A stretch of 64,000 nt of DNA. Source: a virus. A program made the translations under genes and the position numbers. Positions 50,898 to 51,194 of this stretch are shown here, piece after piece. Within the stretch, counting starts at the first letter, position 1. Each line of letters starts with the position of its first letter. The notes under the pieces are model-generated. The model saw only the letters and a program-made list of their open reading frames with translations, searched no databases and was not told where the DNA came from. The stretch lies in the IMG/VR virus record IMGVR_UViG_3300027881_000011, positions 3,783-67,782 of that record; one strand, 5' to 3'.

Positions 50898-50988
50898 TGA
50901 GAGCGTGTTGTTGCCGTCGAGTAGGCACCCCGATTAAGGGGAAAGCCCTGATTAACAGTCAGGATAATCGACAGACATCCGGCTCTCA
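50898..50988 (-). ncRNA. Y-RNA-like unit B with Asn(GUU) anticodon stem-loop
   Basis: TGAGAGCCGGA...TTATC...AACACGCTCTCA; CCTGA-CTGTTAA-TCAGG. Confidence 0.75.
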
Positions 50989-51001
50989 TTTCAAACTTAA
51001 A

Positions 51002-51107
51002 GTGGACATGTTAATGAAAACGGATCAACCCCTTTCGGAGCTGGCAGGACTCGAACCTGCAATATCTTACGATACTTAACCACGGTAACCGTCTTCGTTC
51101 GGTCCAC
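51002..51107 (-). ncRNA. Y-RNA-like unit C with T-arm and closed acceptor-like hairpin
   Basis: GTGGACCGAA...TTACC...AACATGTCCAC; GCAGG-TTCGAGT-CCTGC; CAGCTCC-GAAA-GGGGTTG. Confidence 0.75.
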
Positions 51108-51115
51108 AAACTAAA

Positions 51116-51194
51116 TGCGAACATGTTATGAGAGAGCGGTGCCTTTCGGCTTTCACATTTCAGATGAGATAACGCTCTTACTCTCCGGTTCGCA
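51116..51194 (-). ncRNA. Y-RNA-like unit D
   Basis: TGCGAACCGGA...TTATC...AACATGTTCGCA; TCAT-CTGAAAT-GTGA and GCC-GAAA-GGC hairpins. Confidence 0.75.

Follow-up and report, generated by a model that had tools for sequence, protein, structure and literature searches.

The window analysed here, a stretch of 64,000 nucleotides (nt) comprising all but the first 3,782 bases of a single marine phage record (IMGVR_UViG_3300027881_000011, 67,782 bases), carries an array of Y-RNA-type units beside a Ro60/Rsr gene (rsr). We find that one of these, unit B, displays in isolation a hairpin with the form of a tRNA-Asn anticodon arm, that this hairpin is real and under selection, and that loops of the same kind are strongly enriched at the same place in related arrays. 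We suggest, with a probability of about one half, that such units combine a docking scaffold with an anticodon-arm payload serving as a bait or docking site. A first-pass annotation of the window had assigned isolated anticodon stem-loops to unit B (Asn GUU) and unit D (Phe GAA) and had interpreted them as Ro-protected decoys or sensors for anticodon nucleases or tRNA-modifying enzymes; taken as a whole, the observation is partly confirmed and the interpretation partly supported. The argument turns on four features:

50898..50990, minus strand: unit B, a Y scaffold with an anticodon-arm-like hairpin and then a second hairpin.
50947..50963, minus strand: the anticodon-arm look-alike of unit B, CCUGA-CUGUUAA-UCAGG, directly after UUAUC.
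51116..51194, minus strand: unit D, a Y scaffold with a first hairpin and then a GAAA-tetraloop hairpin; its scaffold helices are kept in 10 orthologues.
51153..51167, minus strand: the first hairpin of unit D, UCAU-CUGAAAU-GUGA (Phe-like), with the rival fold CAU-CUGAA-AUG; the register is ambiguous.

The letters of both units stand on the minus strand as annotated. In unit B the hairpin is part of the minimum-free-energy (MFE) fold (pair probability 0.76-0.82 at the inner four pairs, 0.45 at the outer one), and it folds alone at -4.0 kcal/mol; as predicted, it has the 5-bp stem and 7-nt loop of an anticodon arm. Its loop, CUGUUAA, is the commonest one among the 22 distinct tRNA-Asn(GUU) genes called by ARAGORN in the fetched loci (10 of 22, with UUGUUAA in 7 more; the loops of the other five were mis-extracted by a simple script or are different). 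The annotated pairing of a 5-bp stem with a canonical tRNA-Asn loop is thus borne out. A tRNA-like domain, consisting of T arm, D arm and closed acceptor stem, is found in unit A only; because units B and D have neither a T arm nor a D arm, the hairpin is displayed in isolation, as had been proposed. The scaffold of unit A recurs in units B and D, its helices covary in ten D-type orthologues, and the motif is found again beside rsr genes.

Relatives were collected through Rsr searches, which returned one genome contig and nine viral contigs at 71-78% protein identity as well as 80 metagenome loci, nine of them close (68-78%, some duplicating viral contigs) and the remainder at 43-49%. The close family consists of 13 arrays (the window, L001-L005, L007, L008, L019, L020, L023, L025 and L026), the arrays of L005 and L019 being partial and the Rsr of L004 the same as that of L005. 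Across 98 sources (the window and 97 loci), a regular expression for the scaffold matched 223 places, which reduce to 165 unique units. Viral contigs were also searched for exact matches to the rsr leader hairpin and to a D-type pattern; this gave only contigs already known via Rsr, and CTGTTAA occurs at 166 places in the genome G001, fewer than in a reversed control. ARAGORN called no tRNA in any of the 26 loci L001-L026, and the Rfam tRNA model had no match in the 10 close-family arrays scanned.

Each unit was represented by the 7-nt-loop hairpin with the longest stem (at least 4 bp) beginning no more than a few bases from UUAYC; the chance level comes from 300 dinucleotide-preserving shuffles of the scaffold units. 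The 165 unique units divide as follows:

CU-NNN-AA loops: 17 observed; shuffle mean 0.21, maximum 3.
Other YU-NNN-RN loops: 7 observed; shuffle mean 1.56, maximum 6.
T-arm-like loops: 12 observed; shuffle mean 0.003, maximum 1.
Other loops: 37 observed; shuffle mean 25.0, maximum 37.
No such hairpin: 92 observed.

Homologous units are thus enriched for the anticodon-loop consensus C32-U33-NNN-A37-A38 (17 against 0.21 in shuffles), in favour of the first-pass annotation, which had proposed this check, and 16 of the 17 hairpins come from outside the window; two of the 17 (L073, L056) fall inside hits of the Rfam tRNA model. The anticodons had also been expected to differ between homologues. Positions 34-36 do vary, but the cases are few: the Asn-type loop CUGUUAA, spread over 10 different stems, makes up 12 of the 17 strict loops, and the other five are CUGCAAA, CUUGAAA, CUUGUAA, CUUUUAA and CUACGAA. 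CUGUUAA is present in 9 of the 12 related arrays besides the window. A positional control over about 905 kb on both strands, with stems of at least 5 bp, placed 82 hairpins in ARAGORN tRNAs, 12 next to the motif and 52 elsewhere. These 52 comprise 44 on the rsr strand, which are probably uncalled tRNAs of phage tRNA arrays, and 8 on the opposite strand (452 kb).

The close family alone contributes 54 unique units, among which 16 carry a strict anticodon-like hairpin (at least 4 bp, U33, R37), 10 carry the same on 3 bp, 6 have a T arm only and 22 have another hairpin or none. All 16 strict hairpins combine a pyrimidine at 32, U33 and a purine at 37 with a varying triplet. The filter imposed neither C32, which all 16 have, nor A38, which 12 of the 16 have, and GUU dominates at positions 34-36. 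The hairpin is the sole payload of minimal units in L003, L008, L019 and the distant L033, and distant true Y scaffolds carry it in L033 and L080 (both CUGUUAA) and in L084 (CUACGAA).

Covariation was scored in D-type orthologues, ten of which were defined by their flanks and not by the hairpin. The 17-nt hairpins alone were aligned for 8 of the 10, L008 and L019 being left out because their loop has 8 nt (CUCUGAAA) and their inclusion shifted their 3' strands. In this alignment 93% of the cells are paired and four of the five pairs change on both sides, the covariation score was reached by none of 500 shuffles, slid controls pair at 23-46%, and C32, U33 and A37 are unchanged. RNAalifold did not recover the hairpin from whole D-type units aligned with MAFFT, an alignment in which it was misplaced. 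Change of the triplet itself can be followed in the supported clade (99/99) of L008, L001 and L019. In their B-type units, L008 and L019 combine the identical stem UUAUC/GAUAA with the loops CUUGUAA and CUGUUAA, respectively, and the D-type loop is the same 8-nt sequence in L008 and L019 and CUUGAAA, one base shorter, in L001. Since stem and flanks are the same and the loops differ, the triplet region changes within this clade and the flanks stay. The 'Ser' loop CUUGAAA of L001 may simply be an indel product.

The Phe-type hairpin of unit D is doubtful. Its letters are present as annotated, but the rival fold with a 5-nt loop is about equally likely and is favoured by the relatives that carry CUGAA. 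The 4-bp stem of the 7-nt-loop register includes a U-G pair and folds alone at +0.6 kcal/mol; in the ensemble its pair probabilities are 0.26-0.44, against 0.33-0.36 for CAU-CUGAA-AUG, which is also the MFE structure. CUGAAA recurs after UUAUC in 11 close-family units, in loops of three sizes (5, 7 and 8 nt). With at least 3 bp, the 5-nt register is found in 6 of these 11 units and the 7-nt register in 4, and the Phe reading is not favoured because the former fits more units of this class. The loop of unit D belongs to CUGAAA, a second recurrent motif of ambiguous fold. In a seawater DNA run, for which contigs only were used, the D-type unit of a relative differs from window positions 51141-51166 by two substitutions and five single-base insertions, most of which fall inside the first hairpin.

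Our proposal counts units B and D among about six Y-RNA paralogues that would be transcribed with the phage Ro60 gene from one promoter and expressed as separate RNAs, all sharing a docking scaffold and each presenting a different payload after UUAYC. The payload of unit B opens with a hairpin that selection has kept as an anticodon arm (about 5 bp, C32-U33-GUU-A37-A38), and the same arm stands in the B- or D-type units of most related phages. Ro60 would grip the scaffold and leave the hairpin protruding, and a protein that recognises anticodon loops of the U33-G34-U35 type might dock on it or be baited by it. The likeliest partner would be a host tRNA-cutting defence nuclease, which the hairpin would titrate; alternatively, a loop-reading modification enzyme such as TGT might dock there. 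The only tRNAs of the phage itself, two tRNA-Tyr(GUA), have the loops CUGUAAA and CUGUAAC, which have the U-G-U element in common with CUGUUAA.

Several observations weigh against this proposal. Most homologous stems are A-U rich and fold alone at about 0 kcal/mol, for units of L019, L020 and L023 that were cut out crudely the MFE structure does not contain the hairpin, none of the hairpin stems copies a particular tRNA-Asn stem, and the L025 array lacks a strong anticodon-like hairpin altogether. No triplet but GUU recurs: GCA, UGA, UGU and ACG each stand once in Y scaffolds, and UUU is confined to a tRNA-like RNA. Given the dominance of GUU, what is conserved could be a single loop motif instead of a generic display of anticodons. 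No genes for tRNA repair or tRNA modification turned up when the 29 neighbouring open reading frames (ORFs) were compared with Pfam. Finally, 57 YrlA-like units with a T arm have a 7-nt loop at the place of the hairpin (the 'V' position of YrlA) in only 14 cases, with U33 in 7 of the 14. Because such a loop with U33 is rare in units with a T arm, the anticodon look is limited to a subset, chiefly the minimal B- and D-type units, and on this count we rejected the idea that the hairpin at the V position is anticodon-like in all YrlA-type units.

It is tempting to carry the bait proposal further. Phage Ro60 particles might act as a display rack on which one scaffold presents anticodon arms, lone T arms, acceptor/T minihelices and whole elbows, with the anticodon-arm units forming a panel of baits against loop-reading host nucleases or enzymes, in which triplets are swapped between close phages as targets change. 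We regard this extended form as unlikely.

In a doubtful but serious alternative, the hairpin would be a conserved U-turn loop at the service of the particle or of some partner that has nothing to do with tRNA, and it could contact Ro60, host PNPase or a phage protein; its likeness to tRNA-Asn would be inherited or incidental. This would agree with the single loop CUGUUAA accounting for 12 of the 17 strict hits and with CUGAAA occupying the same place in 5-, 7- and 8-nt loops, which looks more like sequence recognition than anticodon geometry; tethering of PNPase by the payloads of Y RNAs is, moreover, already known. The loop nevertheless fits a strict anticodon pattern that only 64 of 16,384 heptamers satisfy, close relatives differ in the triplet but not in the fixed flanks (L008 versus L019; L001 versus both of these), and other payloads of the same arrays, T arms and full elbows, are plainly tRNA parts.

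That the hairpins are functionless leftovers of ancestral tRNA genes, perhaps of tRNA-Asn, we consider improbable, though observations at distant loci speak for it. In the Ro loci L073, L056 and L082, tRNA-like RNAs have the scaffold motif followed by an anticodon arm, variable loop and T arm; the Rfam tRNA model hits L073 253-316, L056 495-566 and two RNAs of L082, in which acceptor stem, D arm, a loop-closed Ro-type hairpin, UUAUC, a hairpin, T arm and acceptor 3' strand follow one another. In addition, 24 of 63 distant loci have some tRNA within 200 nt downstream of rsr, and in 17 of the 63 the first one there is tRNA-Asn(GUU); many of these 17 loci may be related phages. A tRNA-Asn(GUU) after rsr is also annotated by the depositors in Gordonia phage BlueNGold (L104 4301-4373). 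The distant tRNA-like RNAs, which are not minimal Y RNAs, suggest where the hairpin came from. A leftover, however, would not keep its loop on 10 different compensated stems in phages whose Rsr proteins are 44-79% identical to that of the window. Least probable by far is that there is no RNA feature at all, the hairpins being chance matches or the region coding for a 111-aa ORF at 50654-50989: this frame spans units A and B, and frames of about 100 aa occur in all arrays, but we rejected it as a conserved protein because in 7 of 11 relative loci its similarity is scattered over two or three frames, and the enrichment and covariation results oppose chance.

The two L082 RNAs lie at 715-850 and 965-1105, and the second ends in an encoded CCA. 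RNAs of this type keep the natural tRNA order of acceptor stem, D arm and T arm, with a loop-closed Ro-type scaffold hairpin inserted after the D arm, and the Rfam tRNA model matches them with a long insertion; others lie at L080 2330-2446, L058 4698-4820 and L073 457-571. The 17 loci with tRNA-Asn(GUU) first are L031, L034, L036-L040, L044, L046, L049, L054, L058, L069, L077, L079, L081 and L086. Among cultured phages, the first hairpin of the YrlA-like RNA is anticodon-arm-like in BlueNGold (CCUU-CUGAUAA-AAGG, L104 5036 onwards), Cashline (CCU-CUGCAAA-AGG, L099 1698) and Mycobacterium phage Cali (CUC-AUUGCAA-GAG, L100 2198). The YrlA-like RNA of Mycobacterium phage Myrna (L105 2317 onwards) has UCCU-AUGCGGA-AGGA, the loop of which is identical to that in the first hairpin of unit A (50860-50875, minus strand), and the Rsr of Myrna is only about 37% identical to that of the window. 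The actinophages BlueNGold, Cashline, Myrna and Cali thus carry similar hairpins in culture and could serve as model systems.

The remaining features of the array and its surroundings are:

51531..51558, minus strand: promoter-like site heading the array, TTGACT-16 nt-TATCAT, which matches the consensus at 10 of 12 positions.
51458..51524, minus strand: unit G, a Y scaffold whose payload has AUCCAAA and no convincing stem.
51352..51407, minus strand: unit F, a Y scaffold whose sole payload is the T-arm-like hairpin AUAAG-UUCGAUU-CUUAU.
50999..51110, minus strand: unit C, a Y scaffold with a GUAA hairpin, a T-arm-like hairpin and a GAAA hairpin, without an anticodon-like loop.
50745..50890, minus strand: unit A, YrlA-like, with T arm, closed acceptor stem, D arm and a short first hairpin, UCU-AUGCGGA-AGA.
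49075..50700, minus strand: Ro60/Rsr gene, 541 aa (vWA_Ro60, E 7e-58; TROVE, E 2.3e-40).
62034-62119 and 62190-62274, minus strand: conventional tRNA-Tyr(GUA), two different genes, both with encoded CCA.

Some 800 nt between the promoter-like site and rsr parse into units with one common scaffold, in the order terminal helix (GRRC and its 3' partner), CGR (5' strand) opposite (A/C)ACAUG (3' strand), second helix, UUAYC and variable payload. The units (50745-51524) adjoin rsr (49075-50700) on the same strand, the placement typical of YrlA-type Y RNAs, and the TROVE and Ro60 vWA domains bear out the claim that these Y-RNA-type paralogues stand beside a real Ro60 gene. Unit A aligns end to end with the YrlA model RF02553 (positions 1-114, 36.4 bits, E 4.5e-6), the gathering score of which, 69, was reached by no unit in the window or in 20 related loci. 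Apart from unit A, nothing in the window array matched Rfam or ARAGORN, and no cloverleaf tRNA was identified there by either. A descent of unit A from tRNA-Asn, considered in view of the T arm of E. coli tRNA-Asn, was not supported; blastn of the L001 unit A against E. coli genomes gave weak hits only, across the junctions of neighbouring tRNA genes. Pairing of the triplet with the AAC of the AACAUG strand was likewise rejected, because units with other triplets keep AAC and L019 has GUU without AAC.

Two weaker candidates listed in the first-pass annotation are as it described them: AUGCGGA of unit A sits on a 3-bp stem, and AUCCAAA of unit G has no real stem. The first units of arrays (unit G of the window and the G-type units of L002-L004, L008 and L023) have YCCAAA after UUAYC, letters resembling a Trp anticodon, with no stable stem. 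In unit F the T-arm-like hairpin is followed by ...GCUCCA, so that the unit resembles an acceptor/T minihelix, a design kept in L001, L002, L004, L007 and L023. The letters around the promoter-like site recur upstream of arrays at related loci. A second promoter-like sequence, TTGACT...TACAAT, lies inside the arrays of L001 (about 2510-2620), L003 (about 2480-2560) and L008 (about 2470-2545), and after it the 3'-strand letters of the scaffold precede the 5'-strand letters, as in a permuted unit. The rsr leader hairpin (about 50700-50740, minus strand) rebuilds the terminal helix of the scaffold, and a 20-nt stretch is identical in seven viral contigs.

Pfam scans place genes for a YqaJ exonuclease, RecT and SSB downstream of rsr on the same strand. 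ARAGORN miscalled the second tRNA-Tyr as Val(aac) at a relaxed threshold, and a single open frame of 3,955 aa lies at 28771-40638 (plus strand). The array has no DNA match in the phage collection, where protein identity is below 60% for all 354 Ro-gene phage records, and contigs of four DNA runs cover it wholly or partly.

Y RNAs are thought to steer Ro60 via a variable module, and the bacterial ones mimic the tRNA elbow only. If our proposal is true, the anticodon arm would give the same scaffold a further kind of tRNA mimicry, distinct from that of the elbow. Like YrlA (RF02553), the units described here lie next to rsr and join a putative Ro-docking stem to a tRNA-mimic payload, and unit A aligns with it throughout. 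In YrlA, Chen et al. 2014 (PMC4201824) describe a fourth stem-loop, 'V', which is less conserved and lies upstream of the T arm; it occupies the same place as the hairpin of units B and D. YrlA is stated to lack an anticodon loop in the Wang et al. 2018 preprint (10.1101/312249), in keeping with what the first-pass annotation had said of it, whereas units B and D have no T, D or acceptor arms and keep the hairpin only. For Yrn1 of Deinococcus radiodurans, Chen et al. (PMC4201824) modelled a 5-bp stem as part of a possible 'anticodon arm'; the loop there is 6 nt long, and that account claims no anticodon-loop consensus for it, in contrast to the 7-nt loop found here, which matches a real tRNA-Asn loop. 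Thermus phage phiLo encodes Ro60 with the Y-like RNAs Yrl1 and Yrl2 just upstream, and these bind Ro60 and host PNPase in vitro (PMC12135203); they are two RNAs only, and the words 'anticodon' and 'tRNA-like' occur 0 times in the main text of that paper. Phage Ro60 with Y RNAs is already known, and the CUGUUAA anticodon-arm hairpin on a canonical Y RNA is without a precedent that we could find: the literature searched, supplementary files not covered, gave no description of anticodon arms on canonical Y RNAs.

The chemistry of such a bait has parallels in laboratory substrates. Hairpins with a U-G-U loop suffice as substrates of bacterial TGT (PMC1950534), and anticodon minihelices are fully cut by the colicin E5 domain, for which the determinant is YGUN (PMC1635277). 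A stem and a 7-nt loop with U-G-U are thus enough, and CUGUUAA fits, although the substrates in those reports are laboratory constructs or an mRNA hairpin and not parts of a natural Ro-bound RNA. Phage tRNAs are reported to defeat tRNA-cutting defences, and a phage tRNA-Tyr to counter a retron (PMC11555353, PMC11464382). Like these, the hairpin is a phage-encoded anticodon-loop RNA that would act in a conflict over tRNA, and this phage carries two tRNA-Tyr; unlike these full decoding tRNAs, which replace the cut ones, units B and D cannot decode and would be baits. Hughes et al. 2020 have proposed that YrlA might competitively inhibit an anticodon nuclease (PMC7790460), and anticodon-arm units, if they work as we suggest, would link phage Ro60 to the conflict between phages and bacteria over tRNA cleavage.
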